A DNA stretch of 64,000 nucleotides from an uncultured Actinomycetota bacterium (GCA_963828105.1 CAWHDF010000020.1:17392-81391); one strand, 5' to 3'. Positions 15 to 31,093 are shown, counted from the first letter of the stretch. Translations and numbers: made by a program. Notes: generated by a model from the letters alone, not told the origin.

Positions 15-1187
15 GTGATTGCGAGTCGGCCCGCTGGATTCGCCGCTGCCCGCATCGACAGGACGGTGCCGTTGGGAAACGTGACCCGGTTCCGGCCGGG
101 TGCGTTCAAGGTGCTCGTGCCGCGCACGTCGACCGCGGTGCAGGTACGAGTTTTTTCGCGTAAGGCTGTCGCTCTCAGGCGAGTCGTGCAGCGCTTCAGC
201 ACGACGACGATCAAGGGTGTGCCGACGCGGGTGCTCACGCTCACTGCGCCGAGCGAGACCGTGATGCTGTCGCGGTCGCTGCTCGAGGTCGACCACAACC
301 TCTCTCGTTTGAAGTGGCTGCTCGTCGTGATCTCGCTTGGCGGCATCGGCGCGGCGGCAATCCTGGGCGCGCTCGTCTCGGGCCGCGCGGTGGCCCCGCT
401 TCGGCGGTTGACCGAGGCGACGGAGCGGATCGTCGAGACCGGCGACCTCAGCGAGCGGACCGGCAGGCGCGGCCGGGACGAGATCAGCCGCCTCTCGGTT
501 CGCCTCGACGAGCTTCTCGGGAGCCTGGAAGCTTCGCTGCGCACCCAGCGACAACTCGTCGCCGACGCGTCGCATGAGCTGCGAACCCCGCTGACGACGC
601 TGCGCGCCAACGTCGGCCTCCTCTCCCGTCCCGGCGCGCTCCAAGAGGGCGAGCGGGAAGGGCTGCTCGCCGATGTGCAGGAGGAGCTCGAAGCGATGAC
701 GACTCTCGTTGGCGAGCTCGTCGAGCTCGCACGCGGCGAGGAGCGCGATGTCGCACCACGGGAGTTCCGGCTCGACGAGGTCGTCCGGGCCGTCGTTGAC
801 CGGGCTGCCCGACGCCCGGCCGCGGTGTCGTTCACGACCCGGCTCGAGCCGTCGGTCATTACGGGAGTGCCCGAACGCGTCGAGCGGGCGGTCGCAAACC
901 TGCTCGACAACGCAAGCAAGTGGAGTCCTCCCGACCGGGCGGTCGAGGTCGCCGTTTGTGGGGGGCTCGTCGAGGTGCGTGACCACGGGCCGGGAATCGC
1001 GAGCGAGGACCGTCCACTCGTCTTCGACCGGTTCTACCGCTCCGAGCGGGCGAGGGGGATGCCCGGCGCCGGTCTCGGTCTCGCGATCGTCAAGCAGATC
1101 GCCGACGCGCACGGCGGGACCGTGACGGTCGATGAGGCGCCGGGTGGCGGGGCGATTCTGCGACTGCGATTTTCAACGACACGTTAG
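15..1187 (+). CDS. Sensor histidine kinase (HAMP-HisKA-HATPase_c); 5' end probably cut by window edge
   Basis: ORF 15..1187. One TM (LLVVISLGGIGAAAILGALV), H-box SHELRTPLT and G-box GLGLAIV are present. The frame stays open to position 3, and the first TM expected for this class is absent. Confidence 0.85.
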   Translation: MIASRPAGFAAARIDRTVPLGNVTRFRPGAFKVLVPRTSTAVQVRVFSRKAVALRRVVQRFSTTTIKGVPTRVLTLTAPSETVMLSRSLLEVDHNLSRLKWLLVVISLGGIGAAAILGALVSGRAVAPLRRLTEATERIVETGDLSERTGRRGRDEISRLSVRLDELLGSLEASLRTQRQLVADASHELRTPLTTLRANVGLLSRPGALQEGEREGLLADVQEELEAMTTLVGELVELARGEERDVAPREFRLDEVVRAVVDRAARRPAAVSFTTRLEPSVITGVPERVERAVANLLDNASKWSPPDRAVEVAVCGGLVEVRDHGPGIASEDRPLVFDRFYRSERARGMPGAGLGLAIVKQIADAHGGTVTVDEAPGGGAILRLRFSTTR

Positions 1188-1193
1188 ACGCGC

Positions 1194-1224
1194 TTTAGAG
1201 CTGTTTTAGAGCTGGCTGTTTACC
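1194..1224 (+). promoter_or_regulatory. Tandem direct repeats upstream of the lipoprotein gene (candidate OmpR-family response-regulator site)
   Basis: TTTAGAGCTG (1194-1203) is immediately repeated as TTTTAGAGCTG (1204-1214), followed by GCTGTTTACC. It lies in the 74-bp gap between the kinase stop and the lipoprotein start. Confidence 0.3.
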
Positions 1225-1261: not shown

Positions 1262-1888
1262 TTGAGCAGGGGCGGACACTCGCTGGTCACGCGGGTGCGG
1301 TCGCGGAGCGGGCACGGACCAGCGCTCGGGCCGTGTCTCGCGGCGGTTGTCGTCGCGCTGGCGGGCTGTGGCGGCGGTGGGAAGGCGCCCGCGGTTGCGA
1401 GTCTCGGGCCCACCACCTCGACGGCGCCGAGCACGAGCCAATCCCCAGCGGCGGGAACGAGCGGCGGCAGCGGGTCGGCGGGCTTCGTCGCCTTCGCCGC
1501 CTGCATGAACAGGCACGGGGTTCCGGTCACGGTCACTCGAGGCCCGGGCGGTGCCGGGGGGATCGAGATCGGTTCGGGCAGCGCCTCGAGCGGCATCGTT
1601 CCGGGTTCGCCTCGGCTCCAGGCAGCTCAGCGGGTGTGTCAGAAGCTGCTTCCGGGTGGCGGTCCCAAGCAACTGACGCCCGCGCAACAGGCCGAGTCGA
1701 CACGGAGCGAGCTCGCGTTTGCCGAGTGCATGCGCAAGCACGGTTACCCTGGCTTTCCCGACCCTGACAGCCAGGGTGTGCTCAACCTGAGCGGCATCGA
1801 CCCGCGCTCGGCCCAGTTTCAAAGCTCGATGAAATCATGCCGGCCGCAGGGAGGGGTCATCGCGATCAGGGCGCGCGCGACGTCATGA
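1262..1888 (+). CDS. Secreted lipoprotein with duplicated C-M-R-x-H-G...F-P-D-P cysteine motif (function unknown)
   Basis: Lipobox-like VVVALAGCGGGG. Motifs FAACMNRHGVP and FAECMRKHGYPGFPDPDSQG. A paralog lies at 15131..15874. The start codon (TTG 1262 or GTG 1295) is uncertain. Confidence 0.7.
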   Translation: MSRGGHSLVTRVRSRSGHGPALGPCLAAVVVALAGCGGGGKAPAVASLGPTTSTAPSTSQSPAAGTSGGSGSAGFVAFAACMNRHGVPVTVTRGPGGAGGIEIGSGSASSGIVPGSPRLQAAQRVCQKLLPGGGPKQLTPAQQAESTRSELAFAECMRKHGYPGFPDPDSQGVLNLSGIDPRSAQFQSSMKSCRPQGGVIAIRARATS

Positions 1889-1894
1889 GCCCGA

Positions 1895-3472
1895 ATGTCC
1901 AGAGGCGTAGCGGCCGTGCCGGCGCCTGAGGAAACCCGAGTCTCGCTGCCGGCGTCGCCTGGCCCGCTGCCGGCGAGGCGGGAGCTGCTGCGGGTGCGAC
2001 GGCGGCCGCTGGCCGTCCTGCTCGCCGTCGTGACGGTCGCCGTCGCGATCGTCGTCTTGCTCATGACGGGTGTGTTCGCAAGCGGTGGTTCGAGCACAGG
2101 CGGACTCGTTGACAACCCGTATCCAACCGCGGTCGCACGCGTGACGCGCCAGTCGTTGTCGCAACAAACCCAGGTGAGCGCGACGCTGACCTACGCTGGC
2201 TCGGCCACGATCGTCGCCCCTTCCGGGACCTCTCCGCCCGATCTGCTCCAGGCTCAGCAGCAGGTCACCAGCGACGAGGGCATGCTCGACGCAGCGAACG
2301 CGACGCTTACGAGCGACAGCGGTTCGCTCGCCCAACTCGAGGCGGATCTTGCGGCCGCCCGGGCGAAGGAGGCGGTCGACTGCGCGGGAGCGAACGCTGC
2401 CCAGACCGCCTCCGGCAGTTCCACGGGTGCGGATTCCGGCACAAGCGGATGCTCGTCGGATGTCCAGAATGTCACCACCGACGAGCAGAGCTTGACGCAG
2501 GATACGACCAAGGTTGCATCCGATCGGACACAGGTGTCCTCGGCCGCGGGTTCGCTGGCGGGTGCCGAGACCGCCCTGGCCGCGGCCGGAACGTCGGCAT
2601 CGCTCTACGGGCAGGACTCGACCTACACGACGCTCCCTGCGCTCGGCCAGATCGTGAAACGTGGGCAGTCCCTCTACGCCGTCAGCGGTAGCCCGGTCTT
2701 TCTGCTCTACGGCCAGACCGCGGCCTGGCGAGCGTTCGTGAGTGGAATGTCACCGGGCCCCGACGTCGCCGAGCTGAACGCGAACCTCGACGCCCTCGGC
2801 TACGGGAAGGGCCTCGCCGGCGACACCTTCACCCCGGCGAGCGCTACTGCGATCGAGGCGTTCCAGACAGCCCGCGGCGTTCCTCCGAGCGGACAGCTGC
2901 TGCTCGGCGCGGTTGTCTTCCAGCCGGGAGCCGTCCGCGTCACGAGCGTGACCCCGACACTGGGCGCAACCGTGCAGCCTGGGCCCGTCTTGACCGTCAC
3001 GTTGACGACGCGGCAGGTGCAGATCCAGCTCGACGCGGCGCTTCAGTCCGAGGTCAAGCTCGGCGACGCGGTCACGATCACCCTCCCGGACAACGAGAAC
3101 ACCCCCGGCGTCGTCTCGTACGTGGGGACCGTCGCGACGACGCCGTCGAACAACGGCGGCGGTGGAGGTTCGAGCAGTCCGACGATCAACGTGTATGTTA
3201 CCCCGACCGAGCCGGCGGCCACCGGGAGCCTCGACCAGGCCCCGGTGAACGTCTCGATTACGACCGCGAGCGTGAGCAACGTGCTCGTCGTACCTGTCGA
3301 TGCGCTGCTCGCGCTCGCGAGCGGCGGCTATGCAGTCGAGGAGATCGACACCGGCGGCATCCATCAGCTCGTCGGCGTGACGCTCGGGCTGTTCGATGAC
3401 GCCAACGGTGACGTCCAGGTGAGCGGCCCCGGTCTCGCCGCCGGCCAGCGCGTCGTGGTGCCCAACCTATGA
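1895..3472 (+). CDS. HlyD/MacA-type periplasmic adaptor with inserted peptidoglycan-binding (PG_binding_1-like) domain
   Basis: N-terminal TM, then a Q/A/S/T-rich coiled-coil region. PG-binding-like segment [37 protein letters not shown]-terminal beta-barrel-like region. The stop overlaps the next start (ATGA at 3469-3472). Confidence 0.8.
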
Positions 3473-4233
3473 CCATCGCGCTCCCGCAGCTCGCCGAGGC
3501 CGGTACGGGTGCCGACGCGTCCGGGTCGGCCGGCGCGACGCCCGTGCTCGAGCTCATCGAGGTGACGAAGCTCTACCCTGCCGAGCCTCCAGTCGCCGCC
3601 CTGGACGCCGTGAGCTTCGCGGTCTCCCGCGGGGAGCTCGTCGCGATCGTCGGTCCGTCGGGTTCGGGCAAGTCGACGCTCCTGCATCTGATGGGGACGC
3701 TCGACCGGCCGAGCTCTGGCACCGTGCGGATCACCGGTCTCGATGTCGCGGTGATGTCGGACCGGGAACTGTCGGCGCTCCGCGCAACCAGGATCGGTTT
3801 CGTCTTCCAGCAGTTCTTTCTCGCCGAACACGCGTCCGTGCTCGAGAACGTCGCCGACGGGCTGCTCTACGCAGGTGTCGGCGCCCCGACCAGACGCGAA
3901 CTCGCAGCCGAGGCGCTCGCGCGGGTCGGTCTCTCGCACCGCGCCCGGTTTCGTCCGACGCAGCTTTCGGGCGGCGAGCGCCAGCGAGTCGCGATCGCGC
4001 GCGCCCTCGTCGGCCAACCGGCGATCGTGCTCGCCGACGAACCGACGGGCAACCTCGATTCCGCCAACGGCGCGGCGATCGTCGCGCTGCTCGAGCAACT
4101 GCATGCCGAGGGAGCGACGATCGTCGTGATCACCCATGACCGCGACCTCGCCTCCCGGCTCCCCCGACAGGTCGAGATGCTCGACGGTCGTATCGTCACC
4201 GATAGCGCCCTGGCGGCGGGAAGTCCGCGATGA
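3469..4233 (+). CDS. ABC transporter ATP-binding protein, MacB/LolD-type
   Basis: Walker [10 protein letters not shown], signature [15 protein letters not shown], Walker [13 protein letters not shown]. Confidence 0.93.
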
Positions 4234-6548
4234 ACAGGCCGCAGAGGATTCACCGTCGCGCAATCCCCGTCGAGGGCAGCGCTGTCACTCGGCTCGGCGC
4301 CCTTCTGCTGGTCACGCTCGCCGGCGCCCTCGGTAGCCTCATGCCGGCCTCGGTCATTTCGGCGCAGGCCGACCCGAGCCCGGCGGTCACCACCTCCTCG
4401 TGCCCGGCGTCGAATCCGCCTGACGAGCTGACGCTTGCCGGCGGTAGCCCGCAGACAGCGAAGCTCGACTCCCCCTTTGCCTCGCCCTTCCAGGTCACGC
4501 TCGCGAACAGCAACGGCTGTCCGGTCACGACCGCGGTTGCAGGCACACCGGTCACGTTCACTGCGCCCGCGAACGGATCGAGCACCGCCAGTGGGGCATT
4601 CGCGGCGAGCGGGTCGAGCGCGGTCACCGTCGGCGCCGACGCGAGCGGAAACGCAGCGACGCCGACGTTCACGGCCAACGACATCGCCGGCAGCTACACC
4701 GTCACCGCGAGCTCGAGCTACGGCTCGGTCGCGTTCTCGCTCACGAACACCGCTGCCGGAATCGCCGTTTCGCTGACCCCGCAGGCGCCCCTCAGCGAGG
4801 CCGCGTTCACGAGCGCGCGCTACAACGAGCCGTTGCAGGTGGTCGTCCTTGACGCCAACGGGAACCCGGTCGAGGGGGCGGCCGTCACCTTCTCGCTCGG
4901 TTCGTCGGGGGGAGGCGGGACAGGGGCAGGAGCCGGTGCGTCGTCCCCGGCAGGCGCGACGTTCGCGACCGGCGACACGCAAGCCGCCGTGACGACGAAC
5001 GCATCGGGTCTGGCCGTCTCGCCGCTCTTCACCGCCAACGCCGAGCCGGGGGCGTTCAGCGCGAGCGCCGCGACCCCGGGTGTCGCTGAGCCCGCGATCT
5101 TCAAGCTCGACAACGTCGCCGGCAAACCGCCCGCGATCAGGCTCGTCGGAAGCTTGCGCCGCTCCGCCGTCGTCGGCGATCGTTACCGCGCGCCCCTCCA
5201 GGTCAGGGTTCTCGACGCCGCGGGCACGCCCGTTCAGGGCGCGACCGTCACCTTCGTGCTCGGCGCGGGCGCCGCTGGCTCGGGCGCGGGGGCCGCGGCC
5301 GGCTCGGGCGGCGGAGCGGCCGGAGCAAACTTCCTCGACGGCAGCACCCAGGCTACCGAGACGACGGGGCCGCGCGGTTTCGCCACCTCGCCGCTCTTCG
5401 TCGCGAATGGCAGCGCGGGCACGTTCACCGCGACCGTCGCGCTCGCGGGCAGGACGAACCCGCTGGCCGTGACGCTCGCAAACCTCGCGGGCAAACCCCC
5501 GGTGATCACGGCCCTCGGAGCAGCTCACGCGGCCGCGACGGTCGACACGCGCTACCGCCGGCCGCTCGCGGTCAAGGTTGTCGCGGCCGACGGCCTTCCC
5601 ATCGAAGGGATGACCGTGAGCTTCTCGCTCGGGACGGGCGGCGCCGGTGGATCGGGCGCAGGCGGCGCCTCGGGCTCCGCGGGAGCGAGCTTCCTCGGCG
5701 GAGCCAGCCAGGTGAGCGAGCCCACCAACGCGCATGGTGTCGCGTTCTCCCCGGCGTTCACCGCGGATGACACCCCGGGCGCGTTCACCGCGACCGCGTC
5801 GATCAGTGGTGTCTCGAACCCTGTGAGCTTTGGGCTCGACAATCTTGCGGCCAAGCCACCTGTGATCAGGGCAGAGGGACCGCTGCCGCGGTCGGCAACC
5901 GTCGGCGGCCGCTTCCCGCAACCGCTGCGGGTTAGGGTTGTAGCCGCCGACGGGAGGCCGGTACAGGGCACGAGTGTCACCTTTACGCTCGGTGGCTCCG
6001 GTGCCGGGGCCGCCGCGTCCGGGTCGTCGGGTAGCGCGGGGGCGTCCTTCGTCGGCGGTGGGGGCTCGGCGAGTGAGACGACCAACGCAGCCGGCGTGGC
6101 CGTCTCGCCGGCGTTCACGGCCAACACCGTTGCCGGCGCTTTCACGGCGAGCGCCTCGGCGCCGGGCACGGCTGCGGTCGCGAACTTCCCACTGCGCAAC
6201 CTCGCCGGCCGGGCGACGTCGCTCACTGTCGGAGCGGCAGGGAGCGAACAGACGACCGTGAACACACGCTTCCCGATCCTCCTCGCCGTCACCGTCAAGG
6301 ACGCCGACGGCAACCCCGTCGCAGGTGCGGTCGTCACGTTCACCGCCCCGAGCCGCGGCGCGAGTGGCCGCTTCGCGGCTCCCGGGGCCGGCCGCCACGT
6401 CGCGCGTGTCAGGACGAACAGTGACGGGATCGCGTTGGCGCCGCCGTTCGGCGCCAACCACCAGGCCGGGGGATACGTTGTCAAGGCGGCGGTCAGGGGC
6501 GCCGCGGTGGTTGCGTTCGCGCTCGTCAACCAGCCGCCCGGCCCGTGA
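4230..6548 (+). CDS. Secreted protein of about seven Big_1/invasin-like Ig repeats, embedded in the ABC operon
   Basis: Signal peptide ([23 protein letters not shown]). Roughly 100-aa repeats of the form YRxPLxVxVxDAxGxPVxGxxVTFxLG...ATSPxFTAN..GxFTA, with G/A/S-rich loops. ATGA overlap with the ATPase and GTGA overlap with the permease. Confidence 0.8.
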
Positions 6549-7750
6549 CGGCGACACCGGCTCTCTCCCCCAAGCGCCTCCACCCGGGCGACCTCGCGCG
6601 CGTCGCGAGCGTCGGCGTGCGTACGCGTCGCCTCCGTGCCGGGCTGTCGGCGCTCGGGATCGCGATCGGTGTCGCAGCGATCGTTGCCGTGCTCGGCCTT
6701 TCGTCCTCGTCCAAGGCAGGGCTGCTCGCCGAGATCGACAAGCTCGGCACGAACCTGTTGACCGTCACAACCGGTCAGACGCTCTTCGGCGGGACGGCCG
6801 AGCTGCCCCTGGCTGCGCCCGGGATGATCGGCCGCATCGGGCCGGTCGCCGAGGTTGCCGACACCGGCTCGACGAGCGTGAACGTCTACCGGAGTCCGCT
6901 CATCCCGTCGGTCAACACCAATGCGCTCAGCGTGCAGGCGGCGACACTCGGGCTGCTCCCCGTGGTCGGCTCGACCGTCGCGCAGGGGTCGTTTCTGAAC
7001 GCCGCGACGGCAACCGAGCCGGTCTGCGTGCTCGGGGCACAGGCGGCGCAGCTGCTCGGGATCGACCGCGTGTATCCCGGACTGCGTGTCTGGCTGGGAG
7101 GGATGTGGTTCTACGTCACCGGCATCCTCACCTCCGCCGCACTCGCGCCCGAGATTGACTCAAGCGTCCTCGTCGGATTCCCCGCCGCCGACAAGTACCT
7201 CGGGCTCGACGGTCACCCGACGACGATCTACGTCCGTACGGTCACGAGCCAGACGCAGGCCGTCTACAACGTGCTGGCAGCCACTGCCAATCCCGAAGAC
7301 CCAAGCGAAGTGGATGTGAGCCAGCCGTCCGCCGCGCTTACCGCGCGTGCCGACGCGCAGGGCGCGCTCAACGGGCTCTTCCTCGGCCTCGGAGCGGTGT
7401 CTCTGCTCGTCGGTGCGGTCGGGGTCGCGAACATCATGATCATCAGCGTGCTCGAACGTCGGAGCGAGATCGGGCTGCGGCGGGCGCTCGGCGCCACGAA
7501 GGGTCACATCCGCACCCAATTTCTCGGCGAGGCGATCCTGCTGGCGCTGCTCGGCGGTGCCGTCGGCGTAATTCTCGGCATTGTCGCGACCGGCGTTTAC
7601 GCGCACACCAAACACTGGGCGACCGTCATCCCGACCCTCGCCTGGGCCGGCGGACTCGGGGCCGCATTCGCGATCGGCGCGATCGCGGGCCTCCTCCCGG
7701 CCATCCGGGCCGCGCGCCTCTCCCCGACCGACGCGCTCCGAACAGTCTGA
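6545..7750 (+). CDS. ABC transporter permease, MacB/FtsX-type with extracytoplasmic domain
   Basis: 401 aa. An N-terminal TM, a large extracytoplasmic domain and three C-terminal TMs. FtsX-like segment IMIISVLERRSEIGLRRALGATKGHI. Confidence 0.9.
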   Translation: MTATPALSPKRLHPGDLARVASVGVRTRRLRAGLSALGIAIGVAAIVAVLGLSSSSKAGLLAEIDKLGTNLLTVTTGQTLFGGTAELPLAAPGMIGRIGPVAEVADTGSTSVNVYRSPLIPSVNTNALSVQAATLGLLPVVGSTVAQGSFLNAATATEPVCVLGAQAAQLLGIDRVYPGLRVWLGGMWFYVTGILTSAALAPEIDSSVLVGFPAADKYLGLDGHPTTIYVRTVTSQTQAVYNVLAATANPEDPSEVDVSQPSAALTARADAQGALNGLFLGLGAVSLLVGAVGVANIMIISVLERRSEIGLRRALGATKGHIRTQFLGEAILLALLGGAVGVILGIVATGVYAHTKHWATVIPTLAWAGGLGAAFAIGAIAGLLPAIRAARLSPTDALRTV

Positions 7751-10962: not shown

Positions 10963-12300
10963 CTAGGCGCGTGGAAGTGTGACGGAGAAGCGGGCGCCTC
11001 CGCCGGCTCGCTGCGCTGCCTCGATGTGTCCGCCGTGGGCGCGCACGAGCTCGGCGGCGACGGCGAGGCCGACGCCACTGCCCGGGGTGTCTCGAGCCGA
11101 GCGGCCGCGCCAGAAGCGCTCGAACACGTGGGGGGCCTCGTCTTCGGCGAGCCCGGGGCCATTGTCCTCGACGACGAGCTGGGCCTCTCCGCCGACAGGG
11201 GCGACCGAGATCGTGACGGTGCCGCCGCGGGGCGTGAACTTGAGTGCGTTGCCGAGGAGGTTGCGAGCGATCTGCCCGAGCCGAGCAGGATCGGCGTCGA
11301 CGTTGACGGGTTCGAAGTGCGTGGCGAGCTCGAGCCCGGCGGCGAGCGCCTGCGGCTCGATCTGCGTGACGGCCTCGCGTGCCAGCTCCGATAGGTCGAC
11401 GCGCTCGCGGCGAAGCCTGAACCGCGCCCCTTCCGCGGCGGCGAGGGTCTCGACGTCCTCGACGATTCGCGCCAGCCGGAGCGTCTCTTCGTGCAGCGAG
11501 CGAAGCCGTTGCGGCGTTGGCTCCTGGACGCCGTCGACAAGCGCTTCGAGCTCGGCCTGAGCGATCGCGAGCGGAGTACGAAGCTCGTGTGCGACGTCGG
11601 TCGCGAAGGCGCGCCGTAGCGCGTCCTCATGTTCGATCGTCTGCGCCATCGCGTCGAACGCACGGCCGAGCTCACCGAGCTCAGCCGGTTCCGACCCGCC
11701 GCCCGCGCGGGCGGCGCGATCGCCGGCCGCGAGCGAGCGGGCGGCCGTGGTCAGCCGGCGCAGCGGTCGCGTGATCCGACGCGCAAAGACCGTGCCGAGC
11801 ACTGCTGCGAGCACGGCGGCCAGCGCGCCGCCGATGAGCAATGTCCGTTCGACCGCACGGCGCAGTCTGCGCTCTGCAAGAGGCGTGTTCCGCGGGAAGC
11901 GAAGCCTCGCGGTTCCGACCCGGCTCCCGCCTGAGCGAATCGCCACCATCGTCGCGGAGGCGAGTGCCACCCCGGCCAGCCGCGCGGCGCGCACGTGCTC
12001 GAGGGCCGCGTCGGAGGCGCCGTCACCCCGAACCGACGTGCCGGTCGGGCCGACCACGACGAGCGTCGCGCCGCTTCGAGCAGCCAGTAGCTCGGCGGGG
12101 TAGAGATCGGCCCGCCCCCAGGATCCGGCCGAGGTGTATTCGGCGCCGAGCACCGCCGCGACGTCCTGGGTCGTGGCCGCCTGCCGCGCCGCGGCAAGGC
12201 GCGAGAGCTGGCGGCCGGTCGTACGCCAGGTCAGGCCGCCGAGGAGAACGACCGCGAGCAGGACGACGGCGGCGAATGCCGCCGCAAGCCGGCTAGCCAT
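10963..12300 (-). CDS. Sensor histidine kinase (HAMP-HisKA-HATPase_c)
   Basis: Two TMs, H-box AHELRTPLAIA, G-box GSGVGLAVA. Overlaps the upstream response-regulator stop. Confidence 0.9.
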   Translation of the reverse strand: MASRLAAAFAAVVLLAVVLLGGLTWRTTGRQLSRLAAARQAATTQDVAAVLGAEYTSAGSWGRADLYPAELLAARSGATLVVVGPTGTSVRGDGASDAALEHVRAARLAGVALASATMVAIRSGGSRVGTARLRFPRNTPLAERRLRRAVERTLLIGGALAAVLAAVLGTVFARRITRPLRRLTTAARSLAAGDRAARAGGGSEPAELGELGRAFDAMAQTIEHEDALRRAFATDVAHELRTPLAIAQAELEALVDGVQEPTPQRLRSLHEETLRLARIVEDVETLAAAEGARFRLRRERVDLSELAREAVTQIEPQALAAGLELATHFEPVNVDADPARLGQIARNLLGNALKFTPRGGTVTISVAPVGGEAQLVVEDNGPGLAEDEAPHVFERFWRGRSARDTPGSGVGLAVAAELVRAHGGHIEAAQRAGGGARFSVTLPRA

Positions 12301-12988
12301 CGCGGCTCAGCCCGAGCCGGTAGCCGCCGCCGAGCACGGTCTCGACGATCAACGGGGCGTGGGGGTTGCGCTCGAGCTTTCGGCGTAGGTTCTTCACGTG
12401 CGAGTCGATTGTTCGCTCGTAGCCGTCGAACTCGTACCCGCGCGCCTGCTGGACGAGCTCGAAACGCGAAAAGACCCTTCCCGGCGTGCCCGAGAGCGCA
12501 ACGAGGATGCCCCATTCGGTTGGTGTCAACGCGACCGGCGCGCCGCGCACGGCGACCTCCCGCCGTTGCTCGTCGAGTGTCAGCTCGCCCTGGCCAAAGG
12601 ACTGCGGGCCGAGCGAATCGGGGCTGCGTCCGCGGCGGACGATCGCCTGCGCGCGCAGCACGAGCTCGCGGGGACTGAAGGGTTTCGAGACGTAGTCGTC
12701 CGCGCCGAGCTCGAGCCCGTGCACACGATCCTCCTCGCCGACACGGGCCGTAAGCACGAGCACCGGCACGTCGGATGCCGCGCGCACCGCGCGCAGCACC
12801 TCGTCGCCGGGCACGTCGGGCAAGCCCAGATCGAGCACCACGAGGTCCAGAGGTCGCGAGCGCGCTACCTCGATCGCCTCTGCTCCCGAGGCGGTCGTGA
12901 AGACCGAAAAGCCCGCGCGCTCGAGATAGTCGCGCAGGAGCTCGCGCAGCTTCCGCTCATCCTCGACCACGAGCACGGTCCGGGCCAC
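12293..12988 (-). CDS. OmpR/PhoB-family response regulator
   Basis: Receiver domain (VLVVEDE...DLVVLDLGLPD) plus a winged-helix trans_reg_C domain (VKNLRRKLE...TVLGGGYRL). Confidence 0.93.
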   Translation of the reverse strand: MARTVLVVEDERKLRELLRDYLERAGFSVFTTASGAEAIEVARSRPLDLVVLDLGLPDVPGDEVLRAVRAASDVPVLVLTARVGEEDRVHGLELGADDYVSKPFSPRELVLRAQAIVRRGRSPDSLGPQSFGQGELTLDEQRREVAVRGAPVALTPTEWGILVALSGTPGRVFSRFELVQQARGYEFDGYERTIDSHVKNLRRKLERNPHAPLIVETVLGGGYRLGLSRDG

Positions 12989-13054: not shown

Positions 13055-14311
13055 CTAGACGACGTCCGGCGGGAAGCGGACCTCGATCCGGAGACCGCCC
13101 TCCGCCCGCGTCTCGGTGCTCAACGCCGCGTCGTGGGCGACCGCGATTGCCTGCACGATCGAGAGTCCGAGGCCGAGGCCGCGCGTTTCATCCGCGCGCG
13201 TGTTCTCGAGCCGTTCGAAGGGGAGATAGAGGCGGTCGAGCTCCTCCTCTGGAATCAGCGGGCCAGTGTTGGTGATGCGCAGGAACGGGTGTCCGGCATC
13301 CGTGCCGGTGCTGAGTTCGATGCTGCCGCCGGGCACGTTGTAGCGGATCGCGTTCTCGAGCAGGTTCGCGACGAGCCGCTCGAGGAGCCGCGGGTCCCCG
13401 CGCGTCCACGCGGGCGCGAGCTCGTTCGTCAGCGTCAGCTCCGTCGGGGCGACGAGCCGTAACGCCGAAACGGTCGTTGCGGCGAGATCGATCCGCTCCT
13501 GCTGGTCGAGGCCGCGTTGGCTACGAGAGAGCGTGAGCAGCGCTTCGATCAGCCGCTCCTGATGCTCACTCGCACCCAGGACCTGCTCGCAGGTTCGCCG
13601 GAGCGAGTCGATCGACGGGTCCGGATCAGCGAGAGCAACCTCGACGAGCGTGCGTTCGAGGGTCAGCGGTGTGCGGAGCTCGTGTGAGGCGTTGGCGACG
13701 AACTGGCGTTGGGCTTCGAACGAGGTCTCGAGCCGTGCGAGCAGCGCATCGAAGGTGTTTCCCAGCTGCTTGAGCTCGTCGTCGGGGCCGCCGAGCGCAA
13801 GCCTGCGGTGCAAGTTGCTCGCCGAGATGTTCCTGGCGGCGTTCGTGATCGTGCGGAGCGGTTGCAGCGCCCGCCCGGCGACCACCCAGCCGAGCCAGAT
13901 CGAGAGCAGTGCCATGATCGCGAGCGCGAACCCGGAGTTGATCAACAGCCCGTGGAGCGCGGCCGTCGACTGCTGCTTCGCCGCGGCGATGATCTGGCCC
14001 GGCGTCGGGACGCTCGGCGGTTTGCTGCTGCTCAGCGCGGGGCCAGTGCCGTGGACGGAGATTGAGACGCCGTTGCCCGAACGGGCGACGATGGCATTGC
14101 CGCTGATCTCGGCGCCGCCGACACGCCCACTCGTGACGAAGAAACTCGCGTTATTCGCCGTGTACTGGGCACGTACCAGCAGATAGGTGACGGTGAGAAG
14201 CGCGGCGCCGGCGAGCAGGAAAAGCGCCCCGAAAAGCACCGTGAGCCGCAGCCGGATCGTGTGGCGCGGGAGCCGGAGCCGCGCACGTGGCGCGCCGCTC
14301 GCGGTCGTCAC
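13055..14311 (-). CDS. Sensor histidine kinase (HAMP-HisKA-HATPase_c)
   Basis: H-box SHELRTPLT, N-box LLENAIRYN, G-box GLGLGLSIV. 4-nt overlap with the upstream response regulator. Confidence 0.9.
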   Translation of the reverse strand: MTTASGAPRARLRLPRHTIRLRLTVLFGALFLLAGAALLTVTYLLVRAQYTANNASFFVTSGRVGGAEISGNAIVARSGNGVSISVHGTGPALSSSKPPSVPTPGQIIAAAKQQSTAALHGLLINSGFALAIMALLSIWLGWVVAGRALQPLRTITNAARNISASNLHRRLALGGPDDELKQLGNTFDALLARLETSFEAQRQFVANASHELRTPLTLERTLVEVALADPDPSIDSLRRTCEQVLGASEHQERLIEALLTLSRSQRGLDQQERIDLAATTVSALRLVAPTELTLTNELAPAWTRGDPRLLERLVANLLENAIRYNVPGGSIELSTGTDAGHPFLRITNTGPLIPEEELDRLYLPFERLENTRADETRGLGLGLSIVQAIAVAHDAALSTETRAEGGLRIEVRFPPDVV

Positions 14312-14964
14312 CGGGAGATGCGGTAACCGGCCGCGACGGTCTCGATGACGGGCGGATCGCCGAGCTTGCGCCGCAAGCGGCTGATCGTGACCTTGACGAC
14401 GTTGCTGAACGAGTCGACGTACTCGTCCCAGCCGCGATCGCGCAGGTCATCCGCCGAGAGCGGGGCGCCGTCTGCGGCCAGGAGCAGCTCGAGCACGGCA
14501 AGCTCCTTCGCACTCAGCTCGAGCCGACGGCCCGCTCGCGTCGCGACCCGCTGGCTCGTGTCGAGCCGGATATCGCCAACGGCGAGAATCGGCGGGTGCG
14601 CCGGCTGACTACGGCGAGCAAGAGCGCGGATGCGCGCAACGAGCTCCGCGAACGCAAACGGCTTGGGCAGGTAGTCGTCGGCGCCGAGGCTGAGACCATC
14701 TACACGGCTCTCGATCGTGTCCGCGGCGGTGAGCATCAGGATCCGGGCACACGAGCCGCGGGCGACGAGCTCCCTGCAGACATCGTCGCCGTGGAGCTTC
14801 GGCAGATCGCGGTCGAGCACGATCACGTCGTAGACGCTGCGGCCGGCGTGGTCGAGCGCGGCGAGCCCGTCCTGTGCGATGTCGACGGCCATGCCCTCAC
14901 GGCGCAGGCCGACGGCGATCGTTGCCGCGAGCTCTCTGTGGTCTTCGACGACGAGCACGCGCAT
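14308..14964 (-). CDS. OmpR/PhoB-family response regulator
   Basis: MRVLVVEDH start preceded by GGAG. Receiver plus winged-helix domains (VKVTISRLRRKLG...VAAGYRI). Confidence 0.92.
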   Translation of the reverse strand: MRVLVVEDHRELAATIAVGLRREGMAVDIAQDGLAALDHAGRSVYDVIVLDRDLPKLHGDDVCRELVARGSCARILMLTAADTIESRVDGLSLGADDYLPKPFAFAELVARIRALARRSQPAHPPILAVGDIRLDTSQRVATRAGRRLELSAKELAVLELLLAADGAPLSADDLRDRGWDEYVDSFSNVVKVTISRLRRKLGDPPVIETVAAGYRISR

Positions 14965-15040
14965 CGTGGACTCCGAGCCGAGATTGCCGGTCAGCGGAAG
15001 CGACCGTCGGCCCCCAAGCATGCCGGAACCCCCCTAACAT

Positions 15041-15077
15041 CGCGGTTACAGCTTCTGTTACCGGTATGTAACCGCGC
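15041..15077. promoter_or_regulatory. 9-bp perfect inverted repeat with internal GTTAC direct repeats in the divergent RR/lipoprotein intergenic region
   Basis: CGCGGTTAC-N18-GTAACCGCG. GTTACA and GTTACC lie 12 bp apart inside it. CTGTTACC resembles CTGTTTACC upstream of the paralogous lipoprotein gene (about 1217-1224). Confidence 0.35.
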
Positions 15078-15130: not shown

Positions 15131-15874
15131 ATGGGAACAGACGCGAACGAATTGTCGGGGGCGCGCGGTCGTCGGCGTTGGCGATGGACGCGCACGATGC
15201 CACTACTCGCCCTCACGGTCGGGTCGCTCGCAGTGCTGACGGCGGGTTGTGGCGGCGGTGGCGGTGCGAACCCCTCGGTCGCGAACCTCGGGACGACGAC
15301 CTCGACTGCGAGCTCGACCCCGGCCGGCGCCGCGGGCGTCGGCCCGGTGGCCTCGAGCAGCGCAGCGGCAGGAGCCCCGAGCGGTGGCCAATTCACGATG
15401 GCAGGCGGTAGCGTCGCCTCGATGATGAAGTTCGCCTCGTGCATGCGCAGCCACGGCGTCTCCAACTTCCCCGACCCCAACAGCCAGGGTGCGATCTCGA
15501 TCTCGTCGAGCAGCGGCATCGATCCGAACTCAGCGCAGTACACGAAGGCACAGCAAAGCTGTCAGACGCTGATGCCGGGTGGCGGTGCCCCGAGCCCCGC
15601 CGTCCAGCACAAGATGCAGATGCAGGCGCTTGCCTATTCGGCCTGCATGCGGGCACATGGGCTGCCGGGCTTCCCCGACCCGTCCTTCTCCGGAGGCGCG
15701 ATCTCACTCAGGATCTCGAGGAGCGGCACTGGCGGGATCGATCCGAACTCGCCTCAGTTCCAGTCCGCGCAGGAGGCCTGTCAAGGCAAGCTCCCGGGCA
15801 AGCCGCTTGGCGCCGTGCGGGCCGCAGGCACCTCGGTCAAGACGGTAGGCGGTGCGAGCAATGGCGGCGGCTGA
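15131..15874 (+). CDS. Secreted lipoprotein with duplicated C-M-R-x-H-G...F-P-D-P motif (paralog of 1262..1888)
   Basis: AAGGAG RBS before ATG 15131. Lipobox LAVLTAGCGGGG. Motifs FASCMRSHGVSNFPDPNSQG and YSACMRAHGLPGFPDPSFSG. Confidence 0.75.
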   Translation: MGTDANELSGARGRRRWRWTRTMPLLALTVGSLAVLTAGCGGGGGANPSVANLGTTTSTASSTPAGAAGVGPVASSSAAAGAPSGGQFTMAGGSVASMMKFASCMRSHGVSNFPDPNSQGAISISSSSGIDPNSAQYTKAQQSCQTLMPGGGAPSPAVQHKMQMQALAYSACMRAHGLPGFPDPSFSGGAISLRISRSGTGGIDPNSPQFQSAQEACQGKLPGKPLGAVRAAGTSVKTVGGASNGGG

Positions 15875-15916
15875 TGCCGCCCCTGCCGAGCGAGACGACC
15901 TCGGCCACGCCTGGCG

Positions 15917-17461
15917 GTGTCGCCCGCGGTGACGATGGCGCCTGACGACGCTCTCGCCGCAGCAGCTCCCGAGGCGCGCCTCGCGCGACGGCCCTCACGC
16001 CGGGCGCTTGTCGGCCTGGTCGTCGTCGCCGCGGCGGTCGCAGGCGTCATCGTTGTGCTCGCGACCGGCCTCTTCGGCGGTGGGGGCGCTCCCGGCGCCG
16101 GCATCGACAACTCGTTCCCGACCGGGGTCGCGCGGGTACTGCGTCAGTCGCTGTCGTCGCAGACGCTCGTTAGCGGGACGCTGACCTATGCCGGCTCGGC
16201 GACCGTCGTCGCGGGAGCCGGGACGGCACCGTCGGCCGTTCTGCAGGCCCAGCAGACGGTCACGTCGGACCAAGGGATGCTGCAGGCGGCGAATGCGACC
16301 CTGGCCGCCGACACGGGGACACTCGCACAGCTGCGGGCTGGGCTGGCGGCGGCGCGCGAGAAGCAGGCGATCGACTGTGCGGGCGCCGACGCGGCGGAGA
16401 CCGCCGCAAGCGGCTCGGCTGCCGGCGGATCGAGTGCGGGCGCGTGCGCAAGCGACGCCCAGACAGTCACGAGCGACGAGCAGAGCCTCGCCGAGGACGT
16501 GAGCAAGGTCGGCAGCGACCAGACCCAGGTCGCCAACTCCGACAGCGCACTCGCCGGGGCAGAGACGAGCCTCTCAGCGGCCGAATCCTCCGCGGCGGTC
16601 TACGGTCAGAGCTCGACGTATACCGCTCTGCCGGCGCTCGGGCAGATCGTTCGGCGTGGGCAAAGCCTCTACTCGGTCAGCGGTGCGCCGGTGCTGCTGC
16701 TGTACGGGACCGTTGCGCCCTGGCGGGCATTCGTGGCCGGAATGACCCCCGGCGCCGATGTCGCGGAACTCAACGCGAACCTCGATGCGCTCGGGTTCGG
16801 CAAGGGCCTCGCGGGCGACACGTTTACCGCCGCGACGGCCGCGGCGGTCGAGGCGCTCCAGTCACGCCGCGGCCTGAGCCCGACCGGTCAGCTGCTCGTC
16901 GGGTCGGTTGTCTTCGAGCCGGGAGCGGTGAGGGTGACGGGTGTGACGCCGACGCTCGGTGAGACCGTGGCGCCCGGCCCGATCTTGACCGTCACGCTCA
17001 CGACGCGGCAGGTGCAGATCGCGCTCGACGCCGCGCTGCAGTCGGACATCAAGGTCGGCGATCACGTCACGATCACGCTGCCGAACAACCAGACGACACC
17101 CGGACGCGTCTCCTACGTGGGTAGCGTCGCAACGGTGCCGTCGGGCTCCGGCGGCGGCTCGAGCACGCCGACGATTGCCGTCGACGTCACGCCGACAGAT
17201 CCCGCGGCGACCGGGACGCTCGACCAGGCACCCGTCAACGTGTCGATCACGACGGCGAGTGTCAGCAACGTGCTCGTCGTTCGCGTCGATGCGCTCCTCG
17301 CCCTGGCGAGTGGTGGTTACGCGCTCGAGGAGATCGGGGCCGGTGGGGTACACCATCTCGTCGCGGTCAACCTCGGCATCTTCGACGACGCCGATGGACT
17401 CGTCGAGATCAGCGGAAGCGGTGTCGCGGCTGGGCAGCGCGTCGTGGTGCCGAACCTGTGA
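15917..17461 (+). CDS. HlyD/MacA-type adaptor with PG-binding-like domain (paralog of 1895..3472)
   Basis: Collinear with copy 1, including [24 protein letters not shown] and the C-terminal [11 protein letters not shown]. Confidence 0.8.
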
Positions 17462-18213
17462 GCGCCCAGCCCGGTCTTGCGCCTCTCAGCGGGCCCACGA
17501 ACGGCTTCGACGGCCGCACGCCCGTGCTCGAACTGGTCGAGGTCACGAAGTCCTACCCGGCCGAGCCGCCCGTCACTGCGCTCGACGGAGTGAGCTTTAC
17601 CGTGCAGCAAGGCGAGCTGGTTGCCATCGTCGGCCCGTCCGGGTCCGGGAAGTCGACGTTGCTCCACCTGATGGGGACGCTCGACCGGCCGAGCTCGGGC
17701 GTCGTGCGGCTCACCGGCCTCAACGTCGCCGAGATGTCCGATCGCGAGCTTTCTGCGCTTCGTGCGGAACGGATCGGCTTCGTCTTTCAGCAGTTCTTCC
17801 TCGCCGAGCATGCGACGGTGCTCGAGAACGTCGCGGACGGGCTCCTCTATGCAGGGGTAGCGGCAGCCGAGCGCCGCTCACTCGCGGCCGAGGCGCTCGC
17901 GCGCGTTGGTCTCTCCCACCGGGCACGGTTCCGGCCGACCCAGCTCTCGGGAGGGGAGCGCCAGCGAGTCGCGATCGCACGGGCGCTCGTCGGTGCACCG
18001 GCGATCGTGCTCGCAGACGAGCCAACGGGGAACCTCGACAGTGTGAACGGCGCGGCGATCCTGGCGCTGCTCAAGACGCTCAACGCCGAGGGCGCGACGA
18101 TCGTCGTGATCACACACGACCGCGACCTCGCCGCGCGCCTGCCGCGCCAGGTCGAAATGCTCGACGGACGCATCGTGGTTGACAGTGCGGCAGCGGACCG
18201 GGGCGAGCGGTGA
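17458..18213 (+). CDS. ABC transporter ATP-binding protein, MacB/LolD-type (paralog of 3469..4233)
   Basis: [36 protein letters not shown]. Start and stop overlap the neighbouring genes. Confidence 0.93.
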
Positions 18214-20402: not shown

Positions 20403-21604
20403 GCGCGGCATCTCCGCTCGCGCGCAAGCGGCTTCATCCGGGCGACCTTGCGCGGGTCGCAAGCATCGGGGTCCGTACCCGACGGCTCCGGGCCGGCCTT
20501 TCGGCACTCGGGATCGCGATCGGCGTCGCTGCGATCGTCGCCGTCCTCGGTCTTTCGTCGTCCTCCCAGGCGGGGCTGCTGAGCGAGATCGACAAGCTCG
20601 GCACGAACCTGCTCACGGTGACGACGGGGCAGACACTCTTCGGTGCAACCTCCGAGCTGCCCCTCGCTGCCCCCGGCATGATCAGTCGCATCGGCCCGGT
20701 GACCGAGGTTGCGGACACCGGCTCGACGAGCGTGAACGTCTACCGCAGTCCGCTCATCCCGGCGGTCAACACGAACGCACTCGACGTCCAGGCCGCTTCG
20801 CTGTCGCTCCTTCCGGTCGTCGGCTCCACCGTTGCGCAGGGGAGCTACCTGAACGCCGCGACGGCGACCGAGCCCGTGTGTGTGCTCGGAGCGCAAGCCG
20901 CACAGCTGCTCGGAATCGACCGTGTCTACCCGGGTGAACGCGTCTGGCTCGGCGGGATGTGGTTCTACGTCACCGGGATCCTTACCTCCGCCGCGCTCGC
21001 CCCCGAGATCGACAGCTCCGTGCTCGTCGGCTTTCCCGCCGCCGAGAAGTACCTCGGGCTCGACGGGCATCCGACGACGATCTACGTACGCACGCTGCAA
21101 AGCCAGGTCGCGGCGGTGCAGGCGGTGCTCGCGGCGACCGCCAACCCGGAGTCGCCGAGCGGGGTCGACGTCAGCCAGCCCTCGGATGTGCTGACCGCGC
21201 GAGCCGACGCCCAGGGCGCGCTCAACGGGCTCTTCCTCGGTCTGGGTGCAGTCTCGCTCCTCGTCGGTGCGGTTGGGGTCGCCAACATCATGATCATCAG
21301 CGTGCTCGAGCGCCGTTCCGAGATCGGCCTGCGCCGCGCGCTCGGCGCGACGAAGGGGCACATTCGCACCCAGTTCCTCGCCGAGGCGATCCTGCTCGCG
21401 CTGCTCGGCGGCGTAGCCGGCGTCACACTCGGCATCCTCGCGACCACCGTCTACGCACACACCAAACACTGGGCGACCGTCATCCCCACGCTTGCCTGGG
21501 CGGGAGGGCTAGCGGCGGCGTTCGCAATCGGCGCGATCGCAGGTCTCCTGCCCGCGATCCGCGCGGCGAGGCTCTCACCCACCGACGCTCTCCGGACGGT
21601 CTGA
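20399..21604 (+). CDS. ABC transporter permease, MacB/FtsX-type (paralog of 6545..7750)
   Basis: Collinear with copy 1 and near-identical over long stretches by eye. Confidence 0.9.
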   Translation: MSAASPLARKRLHPGDLARVASIGVRTRRLRAGLSALGIAIGVAAIVAVLGLSSSSQAGLLSEIDKLGTNLLTVTTGQTLFGATSELPLAAPGMISRIGPVTEVADTGSTSVNVYRSPLIPAVNTNALDVQAASLSLLPVVGSTVAQGSYLNAATATEPVCVLGAQAAQLLGIDRVYPGERVWLGGMWFYVTGILTSAALAPEIDSSVLVGFPAAEKYLGLDGHPTTIYVRTLQSQVAAVQAVLAATANPESPSGVDVSQPSDVLTARADAQGALNGLFLGLGAVSLLVGAVGVANIMIISVLERRSEIGLRRALGATKGHIRTQFLAEAILLALLGGVAGVTLGILATTVYAHTKHWATVIPTLAWAGGLAAAFAIGAIAGLLPAIRAARLSPTDALRTV

Positions 21605-28595: not shown

Positions 28596-28639
28596 ATCCC
28601 AAAAGCTTACACTTGCAGAAAAAATTCAGTGACTATAGG

Positions 28640-29608: not shown

Positions 29609-29658
29609 CCGGAGCTGGTGCTCACGAGCGTGCGCTTTCCGGCGAGCCGCCGCAGTGC

Positions 29659-30824: not shown

Positions 30825-31093
30825 GGCGAGGTCCGCAGGCGAGAAAGCAGGCACCTCCCACGACTGGCCTCGCCTCCCGGCGCCATGCCGGTAGCGTGTC
30901 GCAGGAGTTGCTGGTTCTCTCGAAAGACCCCGGATCTGCCAGCTCGGGTTCCCTCAGATGCGTTCGCCGGATCGTCGGGTCGGCGCGGCGTCCGCCGAAG
31001 TTGAGGCAGTGCGCAGGGACGCGCCTGCTCGTGCCGACGAAGCAGGTGCCGAGGGCGCCGTCACTGCGGTGCGGGACGCGCGGCCGTACCGAA

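Follow-up and report, generated by a model that had tools for sequence, protein, structure and literature searches.

A MacB-type transporter module with an immunoglobulin-domain protein gene between its ATPase and permease genes in uncultured Actinomycetota

A 64,000-nucleotide stretch of DNA from an uncultured soil Actinomycetota bacterium (GCA_963828105.1 CAWHDF010000020.1:17392-81391; the whole stretch, with a G+C content of ~70%, is termed the window) was found to contain two copies of a five-gene module in which the gene for a secreted chain of immunoglobulin (Ig)-like domains lies between the ATPase and permease genes of a MacB-type ATP-binding cassette (ABC) transporter. In both copies, module A (1262-7750) and module B (15131-21604), the genes encode, in order, a lipoprotein, a peptidoglycan (PG)-binding adaptor, a MacB/LolD-type ATPase, the secreted Ig-repeat protein and a permease with MacB_PCD and FtsX domains. 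The Ig-bearing module is conserved, undescribed and recorded only from uncultured lineages; its function we infer. Among the loci compared, the Ig gene appears to occur only beside adaptors that carry an alpha-hairpin.

Two five-gene modules in the window

Module A consists of five co-directional open reading frames (ORFs) on the plus strand, identified by ORF listing and translation: a small lipoprotein gene (1262-1888), an adaptor (membrane fusion protein; MFP) gene (1895-3472), an ABC ATPase gene of the LolD/MacB/FtsE type (3469-4233), the gene for a 772-amino-acid (aa) Ig-chain protein (4230-6548) and the gene for a 401-aa MacB-type permease (6545-7750). The last four are chained by 4-nt stop/start overlaps (ATGA at 3469-3472 and 4230-4233 and GTGA at 6545-6548), all of which had been recognized in an original prediction made from the sequence alone. 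That prediction had also placed a second copy with the same order at 15131-21604, and module B was indeed found there on the plus strand, with genes for a small lipoprotein (15131-15874), an adaptor with a PG_binding_1 domain and an alpha-hairpin (15917-17461), an ABC ATPase (17458-18213), a 730-aa Ig-chain protein of six domains (18210-20402) and a MacB-type permease (20399-21604), the assignments of the last four being supported by Pfam matches. Its stop/start overlaps are GTGA at 17458, 18210 and 20399. Two candidate starts, 15098 and 15131, were present for the first gene of module B, the latter being the most likely because an AAGGAG Shine-Dalgarno motif is located at approximately −10 from the ATG at 15131. 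This was the only such motif detected; none precedes the adaptor, ATPase, Ig or permease starts of the modules, a pattern that fits translation of these downstream genes by coupling. The annotated frames of the module genes are supported by a third-position G+C content (GC3) of 0.80 to 0.86. Long antisense ORFs on the minus strand opposite the Ig genes (3867-6557, 896 aa; 17847-20126, 759 aa) were rejected as shadow ORFs because of their codon-position G+C pattern, with a high GC1 and a GC3 of ~0.69.

Both Ig proteins matched the Pfam family Big_1 above its cut-off of 34.9 bits (49.6 and 55.5 bits) and also gave MG4/BIg21 matches. The signal peptide and Big_1-like repeats predicted for the 772-aa protein were confirmed, but the predicted number of about seven repeats was not, as AF2 models resolved each Ig protein into six beta-sandwich domains of high confidence, of which domains 2 to 5 contain disordered Gly/Ala loops. 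The module A protein has a Sec-type signal peptide followed by an N-type domain with a conserved Cys58/Cys97 pair, four middle domains and a C-type domain; it has no anchor, the chain stopping directly after the last strand. Beyond the signal peptide and six Ig domains there is nothing further in the chain, neither an inverse-autotransporter beta-barrel anchor nor a C-terminal receptor-binding head, and no enzymatic or thioester domain was detected in the AF2/Foldseek analysis. Foldseek searches with the Ig model returned generic multi-Ig or macroglobulin chains only (complement, alpha-2-macroglobulin, titin and axonemal proteins), which gave no functional clue, and a search of PDB sequences with the Ig profile gave nothing useful.

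The adaptor of module A has an N-terminal transmembrane (TM) helix (residues 37-57), a split lipoyl domain, an alpha-hairpin (residues 114-235) and a PG_binding_1 insert (residues 288-334; 28.7 bits against a Pfam cut-off of 23) that precedes the beta-barrel and membrane-proximal domains. The tip of the hairpin is a G/S-rich loop between Cys163 and Cys186, both of which are invariant alignment columns. An AF2 model of this protein (mean pLDDT, 61) recovered the TM helix, split beta strands, hairpin helices and PG_binding helices; the two hairpin helices (114-164 and 184-235, 51 residues each) had a pLDDT of ~90, while the model is modest in quality outside the hairpin and PG-binding region and of low confidence in the barrel region. 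The best Foldseek match was MacA in MacAB-TolC (5nik_D; E = 3.9e-4), followed by AcrA and EmrA. At the sequence level there was only a weak NCBIfam match to the CzcB family (1.9e-5); Pfam HlyD was not matched and a PDB sequence search found nothing. As modelled, the protein has the domain set that defines a periplasmic adaptor or MFP (split lipoyl domain, hairpin, barrel, membrane-proximal domain and TM anchor), in agreement with the prediction of a HlyD-type adaptor with a PG_binding_1 insert. In one metagenome-assembled genome (MAG), MFD05502.bin.1.34, the adaptor and ATPase of a related module were called as a single 746-aa product (L002/L004, 5761-8001), the two being either genuinely fused there or joined through a frameshift in the long-read sequence.

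The predicted MacB-type permease and MacB/LolD-type ATPase were likewise corroborated by Pfam, NCBIfam and PDB matches. The module A ATPase matched ABC_tran (E = 2.6e-33), and its best NCBIfam matches were LolD (5e-67), the MacB nucleotide-binding domain (NBD) (9e-67) and FtsE (2e-62), all below the equivalog cut-offs; on these profiles it is assigned to LolD/MacB/FtsE at the subfamily level only. The permease has four TM helices, with a large extracytoplasmic domain between TM1 and TM2, and matched MacB_PCD (E = 1.7e-16; residues 33-235), which covers this domain, and FtsX (E = 6.7e-21; residues 282-394). Its best PDB sequence match was MacB (5gko; 1e-24 over residues 19-398), followed by further MacB chains and then Spr0695 (5xu1_M), YtrF and FtsX. 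By the sequence features of its permease and NBD, the transporter classes as a type VII ABC transporter (MacB/FtsX superfamily).

Comparison of the two modules revealed identities of 91% for the permease, 82.5% for the ATPase, 68% for the adaptor, 61% for the hairpin region, 60% for the Ig protein and 50% for the lipoprotein. The hairpin, Ig protein and lipoprotein are thus the fastest-diverging parts, and it is in these that partner specificity would be expected. Domain by domain, the Ig proteins were 70% (A1-B1), 62% (A2-B2), 62% (A3-B3), 50% (A4-B4), 54% (A5-B5) and 58% (A6-B6) identical. The Ig domains are therefore positionally orthologous, indicating that the module was duplicated as a unit and that the repeats are not being homogenized.

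Conservation of the gene order and co-distribution with the adaptor hairpin

A genome scan with one genome per species and annotation based on hidden Markov models (HMMs) detected 79 loci encoding an Ig homologue, nearly all of them in MAGs of Thermoleophilia (Solirubrobacterales, Solirubrobacteraceae and Gaiellaceae). The ATPase-Ig-permease order was kept in 76 of these loci. The exceptions were L061, in which the Ig gene follows the permease gene and overlaps its stop codon, and L065 and L076, which contain a different pump family. All six loci whose contexts were looked up contained genes for a small protein, PG-binding adaptor, ATPase, Ig protein and permease, beside response regulator (RR) and histidine kinase (HK) genes. 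The spacing was tight. Between the ATPase and Ig genes it fell between −14 and +6 nt in 66 of 73 loci, with −4, −1, 0 or −8 nt in most, and between the Ig and permease genes it fell between −11 and +10 nt, again in 66 of 73, with −4 or +7 nt in most; many of the related loci come from long-read MAGs with frameshifts, and such sequence accounted for most of the outliers. The neighbourhood survey of the order HlyD/PG-binding adaptor, ABC ATPase, Ig repeat and FtsX permease, together with these gaps, lends strong support to the prediction that the arrangement is selected rather than accidental.

In related loci the Ig proteins have an N-(M)n-C architecture, in which the N-terminal Cys-pair domain and the C-terminal domain are conserved and flank 0 to 6 loop-bearing middle domains, giving up to 8 domains in total (NMC in 50 loci, NMMC in 10, NC in 6, NMMMC in 2 and NMMMMC in 2); lengths of 870 and 969 aa are attained in metagenome homologues. 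Of 120 Ig homologues, 96 start with a hydrophobic signal segment; none of the 120 has an LPXTG motif, and the chains stop as soon as the last strand is complete. Conservation is highest in the N-terminal domain, with a mean p-distance of 0.29 as compared to 0.36 for the C-terminal domain. Among 8000 candidates scored, 615 Ig homologues were found at an E value of ≤1e-5, and a HMMER scan with the N-terminal Ig domain matched 2157 representative proteins. Up to 35 stretches of this Ig-domain type were matched in giant proteins (1000-4390 aa; P0242-P0386) from public genomes and metagenomes, which presumably are surface adhesin-like. This recurrence indicates that the fold is a common building block, while the context and the N-terminal motif are specific.

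A related module without the Ig gene was detected in actinomycetes. Searching of plasmid and chromid records with the adaptor by tblastn identified 49 actinomycete records, in which alignment started only from approximately residue 243; the Ig family was absent from these records. Annotated Streptomyces loci contain an HK-RR pair and, divergently, four genes whose products are annotated as hypothetical, peptidoglycan-binding, ABC ATPase and ABC permease proteins, with no Ig gene; the product annotated as hypothetical is a member of the Cys-motif family that includes the lipoproteins of the window. This four-gene base module (lipoprotein, PG-binding adaptor, ATPase and permease, beside a two-component system) is common in Actinomycetota and uncharacterized. 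The claim that the module is undescribed is consistent with the literature for the Ig-bearing form; it is to be corrected in that the base module is widespread and lacks characterization as well.

The adaptors of Streptomyces, Nonomuraea and Embleya have no hairpin, the lipoyl halves being joined directly or via a short linker. A metagenome scan seeded with such hairpin-less adaptors yielded 80 loci, none of which had an Ig gene; a hairpin was absent from all of these except L102 (1189-3174), in which an extremely long coiled-coil insert of ~400 residues is present and the contig ends inside the adaptor gene. Hairpin and Ig gene together were thus found in 0 of 4 actinomycete loci and 0 of the 80 metagenome Ig-less loci, as against coverage of the hairpin region by 76 of 78 adaptors in Ig-bearing loci. 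Similarly, the Cys...Cys tip motif was present in 61 of 75 adaptors of Ig-bearing loci, with no credible case in Ig-less loci. A number of Ig-less adaptors (L132, L137, L138, L142, L157-L160, L162, L164 and L166) contain the lipoyl/PG_binding segment twice (HMM positions ~240-366).

Trees were constructed by neighbour joining (NJ) on p-distance-derived distances. In a tree of the ATPase and permease, the main Ig-bearing loci formed one group nested among Ig-less loci, and two loci with neither Ig gene nor hairpin, L091 and L092, were placed inside this group. When the adaptor body was added, the Ig-bearing loci alone were monophyletic in only 5 of 100 bootstraps, while a clade of these loci with L091 was obtained in 75 of 100; joint loss of the hairpin and Ig gene in L091 and L092 is, on this basis, moderately supported.

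The Ig family was also observed in distant MacB operons of Acidimicrobiia. In L065 (Acidimicrobiales) and L076, the order is a 656-aa HlyD/YknX-type adaptor, ATPase, permease, DUF5666 lipoprotein and Ig protein. An alternative adaptor candidate, a 391-aa ORF upstream of the L065 ATPase gene, was dismissed as a shadow ORF, the 656-aa ORF being the real adaptor. Adaptors of this type have no PG_binding domain and possess a long hairpin (coiled-coil of ~245 residues) with the same Cys-clamped Gly/Ser tip, and the L065-type Ig protein has an N-M-C layout followed by C-terminal GYWLV..DGGVF repeats. An outward search from the L065 adaptor, for which four contexts were looked up, showed that the Ig protein is encoded downstream of the permease in L170 (656-aa adaptor; after the DUF5666 gene) and L171 (532-aa adaptor with a short Cys-clamped tip; a two-domain Ig protein), while L172 (Dormibacteraceae; 520-aa adaptor) and L173 (Amycolatopsis; 404-aa adaptor) have only the DUF5666 lipoprotein and no Ig protein. 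The Ig family therefore occurs beside MacB-type pumps in at least three gene orders, only with hairpin-bearing adaptors; a strict rule equating the hairpin with the Ig gene was, however, rejected, as L172 and L173 have long-hairpin YknX-type adaptors without an Ig gene. Taken together, the surveys define three protein sets: the Ig-bearing Thermoleophilia module, the Ig-less and hairpin-less actinomycete module and the Acidimicrobiia layout.

Two further features of these operons were observed. The C termini of the Ig proteins of L065 (7806-9623) and L170 (10559-12700) are fused to five or six repeats of GYWLV.SDGGVF.YG.A.F.GSAG, which have no Pfam match and may form a beta-propeller. A DUF5666 lipoprotein gene directly follows the permease gene in L065 (6829-7809), L170 (9682-10530), L172 (5018-5788) and L173 (10153-10917); judged by this recurrence in Acidimicrobiia, Dormibacteraceae and Amycolatopsis cynarae, the last of which is cultured, it is a putative further, uncharacterized accessory of actinobacterial MacB pumps.

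Role of the Ig chain

In order to relate the ends of the Ig chain to parts of the pump, partial Mantel tests were performed on pairwise distances over 55 loci, controlling for divergence of the ATPase and the permease TM region. The Ig C-terminal domain co-varied with three pump parts (p = 0.0005 in each case): r was 0.42 for the adaptor body, 0.32 for the permease periplasmic domain and 0.22 for the hairpin. No significant co-variation was detected between the Ig N-terminal domain and any pump part (r ≤ 0.08). For reference, the hairpin and the adaptor body, which are parts of one protein, gave an r of 0.45 and the permease periplasmic domain and adaptor an r of 0.25 to 0.29 (p = 0.0005 for both). 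Along with the pattern of identity between modules A and B, the co-variation suggests that the C-terminal domain is the pump-proximal end of the chain; this is not put forward as proof, as rate shifts could mimic such a signal.

The original prediction had left the Ig protein as either a partner of the transporter or its exported cargo, a choice that is narrowed by these data and not settled. Our leading reading, held tentatively, is that the Ig chain serves as an extracytoplasmic subunit, made in stoichiometric amounts and docked through the domain at its C terminus, and not as bulk cargo; docking, orientation and stoichiometry we infer. The five genes of each module would then encode an envelope machine that is controlled by a two-component system and has a type VII (MacB-type) ABC transporter as its base. 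The ATPase and four-TM permease would form a motor that moves an extracytoplasmic domain, with no passage of substrate through the membrane. The membrane-anchored adaptor is predicted to assemble around the permease, to attach to the wall via PG_binding_1 and to project an alpha-hairpin whose tip would be clamped by the two invariant cysteines. As an alpha-helix rises 0.15 nm per residue, the 51-residue helices would give this hairpin a length of ~7.5 nm. The Ig protein, exported by Sec, would dock by its C-terminal domain on the adaptor body and permease periplasmic domain, and the middle domains (0 to 6; four in the window) would act as a spacer projecting the N-terminal Cys-pair domain by roughly 10 to 30 nm into or through the wall. 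The five-domain rod of invasin is ~18 nm long, and by comparison the reach of 2 to 8 Ig domains is estimated to be roughly 8 to 30 nm. The machine would remove or hold off wall- or membrane-active compounds, and protection against such compounds is the likely physiological role by analogy with YknWXYZ, AS-48EFGH and Spr0693-0695 (PMC5985334). The reading as a subunit draws on the position of the Ig gene, which is bracketed by genes for an ATPase and a permease that are needed at 1:1 and lacks its own Shine-Dalgarno motif, an arrangement that would point to subunit-level rather than cargo-level output. It also draws on the constancy of that position in related loci, the restriction of the Ig gene to hairpin-bearing adaptors and the joint transitions of gene and hairpin, the N-(M)n-C architecture, the co-variation of the C-terminal domain and the marked divergence of hairpin, Ig protein and lipoprotein between modules A and B.

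Several observations weigh against it. With neither a membrane nor a lipid or sortase anchor in the Ig protein, its retention is an assumption of the subunit model, and recurrence of the same Ig-domain type in the giant adhesin-like proteins fits a surface or cargo role. The hairpin adaptors of L172 and L173 show that a hairpin is not sufficient for the presence of an Ig gene, and the co-distribution of the two rests on few independent events (approximately three), with moderate NJ support. The co-variation cannot separate docking from cargo recognition, and its size may be exaggerated if parts exposed at the surface shifted in rate together. Finally, the proposed substrate class is pure analogy.

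The alternative that survives best, and which we regard as possible though less probable than the subunit reading, is that the Ig chain is cargo: having been exported by Sec and folded (with its N-terminal disulfide), it would be pushed by the MacB bellows through the hairpin tube and across the wall to become a surface or released adhesin-like protein, the hairpin existing only where there is a protein to conduct. MacB-type pumps take extracytoplasmic substrates, including Sec-exported peptides and small proteins (PMC5985334), and the Sec signal, lack of an anchor and kinship with giant adhesin-like repeat proteins agree with such a fate, as does the faster evolution of the Ig protein relative to the core. 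The hairpin/Ig co-distribution fits a conduit for cargo equally well, and the C-terminal domain could co-vary with the pump as a recognition signal. However, the stop/start overlaps between the ATPase and permease genes, without a Shine-Dalgarno motif for the Ig gene itself, would set output at about pump stoichiometry, which is unusual for cargo. Furthermore, known MacB substrates are up to ~10 kDa in size (PMC5985334), as compared to a 35- to 100-kDa chain of folded domains, and a variable number of middle domains between conserved ends looks more like a spacer. A weak OmpA-like C-terminal match in the Ig protein of one relative (L171; E = 0.027, below threshold) also hints at wall retention. 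A more specific proposal, and one we consider unlikely, is that the module is a protein-translocation and surface-display route in which the MacB motor ratchets the folded Ig chain, domain by domain, through a PG-anchored hairpin tube; if true, the number of Ig domains would set the reach across a thick wall, and bacteria that lack an outer membrane would possess a route of this kind that had previously gone unrecognized.

It is less likely again that the chain is a capture or sensing arm, whose distal N-terminal domain would bind an external ligand such as an antimicrobial, a wall fragment or a competitor toxin and relay it, or a signal, either to the pump or, together with the lipoprotein, to the kinase. 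Strong conservation of the N-terminal domain and its evolution independently of the pump parts would be expected of a domain that binds outside the pump, and the modules are always located beside two-component systems, with recurrent pairing of the small lipoprotein family and RR-HK genes. Pfam, NCBIfam, PDB and Foldseek searches, however, detected neither a ligand-binding signature nor a known sensor domain, and the Ig-less modules keep the same two-component linkage, which indicates that sensing does not need the Ig protein. Lastly, the proposal that an unrelated surface-protein gene was inserted once into the operon and has no part in pump function, by which the grouping of most Ig-positive loci in the ATPase and permease tree could be explained, is highly improbable given the tight coupling retained across the whole class and through module duplication, the loss of the Ig gene together with the hairpin in L091 and L092, the association with MacB in two other gene orders (after the permease gene in L061 and after the permease or DUF5666 gene in L065, L170 and L171) and the co-variation of the C-terminal Ig domain with the adaptor.

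Flanking genes and comparison with known systems

A Cys-motif lipoprotein gene had been predicted to precede the four chained genes and two-component genes to flank them, and translation and domain calls agreed on both counts. The module A lipoprotein carries the lipobox LAGC and a linker rich in G/S/T/A, and the Cys-pair motif F..CMR.HG..FPDP...C occurs in it twice; that of module B carries the lipobox TAGC, a linker of low complexity and likewise two Cys-pair motifs. Searches of Pfam, NCBIfam and PDB gave no match to this small protein. Members of the family also precede the adaptor in Streptomyces, Nonomuraea and metagenome modules. Metal binding via the CM..H motif was considered and dropped, as the Streptomyces homologues do not retain the Met and His. 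Related genomes (L003, L016, L091 and others) have an expanded complement of the family, with extra copies located divergently beside RR-HK pairs and four genes in tandem in L003. The adjacency of extra copies to RR-HK pairs suggests that the lipoprotein functions together with the two-component system, as has been reported for two other lipoproteins, CseA and LpqB, and theirs.

A sensor HK gene (15-1187, plus strand; HAMP, HisKA and HATPase_c) lies directly upstream of module A. Related loci share a co-directional RR, HK, small gene and adaptor layout, by which the RR gene of module A would fall beyond the window. Between the modules are a minus-strand pair (10963-12988; HK, 10963-12300; RR, 12293-12988) of the generic OmpR/EnvZ class with sub-threshold BaeS and CreB matches and a second minus-strand pair divergent from module B (13055-15021; HK, 13055-14311; RR, 14308-15021) with sub-threshold VanS-O/VanR-O and CztS/CopS matches; the divergent layout of HK-RR and small genes recurs in related loci. 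NCBIfam searches of the two-component proteins gave generic OmpR/EnvZ-class similarity only and no signal identity. HAMP starts at residues 120 to 171 in the kinases of the window, leaving room for an extracytoplasmic sensor domain. Inspection of the sequence revealed a direct repeat, TTTAGAGCTG, present twice at an 11-bp spacing between the HK and lipoprotein genes (1194-1214, plus strand) and the direct repeats GTTAC, GTTAC and GTAAC, 11 to 12 bp apart, just upstream of the module B lipoprotein gene (15045-15072). These repeats look like candidate binding sites for OmpR-family RRs.

Module B is adjoined by a MASE9-GGDEF-HD cyclic di-GMP gene (21634-23484, minus strand), and GGDEF-type genes are also present beside related modules (GGDEF-EAL in L065, 9694-12087; GGDEF in L002, 1-152), which could be a coincidence or a recurrent neighbour. 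A TetR regulator gene divergent from an ABC-2 type exporter pair (27717-30450) and a secreted fn3-GH5 cellulase gene (30896-32509) have no apparent link to the modules. According to PADLOC, the modules are not part of any defence system, and no RNA family was detected within the window by Rfam.

Profile matches did not place the whole module in a characterized family, membership being confined to the type VII ABC/MacB superfamily and to the MFP type of adaptor. The modules resemble MacAB-TolC of E. coli (PDB 5nik) in their MacB-type permease and ATPase and in an adaptor with a MacA-like domain set; MacAB-TolC also has a known accessory lipoprotein, YbjP, which was among the PDB matches of the adaptor model as bound to MacAB-TolC. 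They differ in having separate ATPase and permease genes, a PG_binding_1 insert, a Cys-stapled G/S-rich hairpin tip and an Ig-chain gene in the operon, and in lacking a TolC-type outer-membrane duct, the hosts being lineages in which no outer membrane is expected. No TolC-family gene was present in either module or in the conserved neighbourhoods of related loci; the whole genome was not scanned for outer-membrane factor genes. In FtsEX with PcsB, EnvC, RipC or CwlO, a type VII ABC motor likewise acts on a dedicated extracytoplasmic protein, and FtsX is weakly related to the permease. The FtsEX partners, however, are coiled-coil regulators or hydrolases on the FtsX extracytoplasmic domain, with no adaptor, whereas here there is an all-beta Ig chain and a full MacB_PCD. 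Invasin, intimin and other Big_1 adhesins share the use of Big_1-type Ig domains as a rod with a variable repeat number, but the window proteins lack their outer-membrane beta-barrel and C-terminal lectin-like head and are encoded in an ABC operon; they are also much smaller than the giant repeat proteins. The BceAB-BceRS type differs in that the permease here is of 401 aa with a single MacB_PCD and FtsX unit, not ten TM helices, an adaptor is present, and the kinases have room for an extracytoplasmic sensor domain, as opposed to the intramembrane-sensing type of kinase. For type 1 secretion systems of the LapA/SiiE kind, the discrepancies are the Sec-type signal of the Ig protein and a transporter of the MacB type, not an ABC_membrane exporter. 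As a defining feature is absent in each case, the module is not a MacAB-TolC, YknWXYZ, BceAB, FtsEX-partner or type 1 secretion adhesin system.

The actinomycete base module (e.g., Streptomyces clavuligerus pF1D18A I3J09_RS28720-28745) has homologous lipoprotein, adaptor, ATPase and permease genes and the same two-component linkage but no Ig gene and no adaptor alpha-hairpin, and its annotation is generic only. This very common module of Streptomyces and relatives may have a bearing on how well antibiotics or antimicrobial peptides are tolerated. A search of full-text literature found no description of the Ig-bearing module or of the Ig-less base module, and none of the Gram-positive MacB systems listed in a 2018 review of the MacB family has an Ig-repeat component (PMC5985334), both of which are consistent with the prediction that no module with an Ig-repeat protein between the ATPase and permease had been described.

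Closest in setting are the Gram-positive systems YknWXYZ (Bacillus), Spr0693-0695 (Streptococcus pneumoniae) and AS-48EFGH (Enterococcus), which also combine an adaptor with a MacB-like ATPase and permease in bacteria that have no outer membrane; Spr0695 is a direct sequence relative of the window permease. Such systems protect against peptides, YknX binds peptidoglycan and some have an extra accessory protein (PMC5985334). The accessories YknW and AS-48E are four-TM membrane proteins, unlike the secreted Ig chain, and no YknW-like four-TM accessory is among the operon genes, which encode the lipoprotein, adaptor, ATPase, Ig protein and permease only. Conversely, none of the three has the Ig-repeat gene, PG_binding_1 insert, Cys-motif lipoprotein or two-component linkage seen here. 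The same review posed as an open question the role of periplasmic adaptors in bacteria without an outer membrane or TolC (PMC5985334). The Ig chain, apparently inherited and lost with the hairpin, is a concrete candidate: it may be the outer partner hitherto missing from a Gram-positive MacB machine, or else a protein that such a machine carries as cargo.

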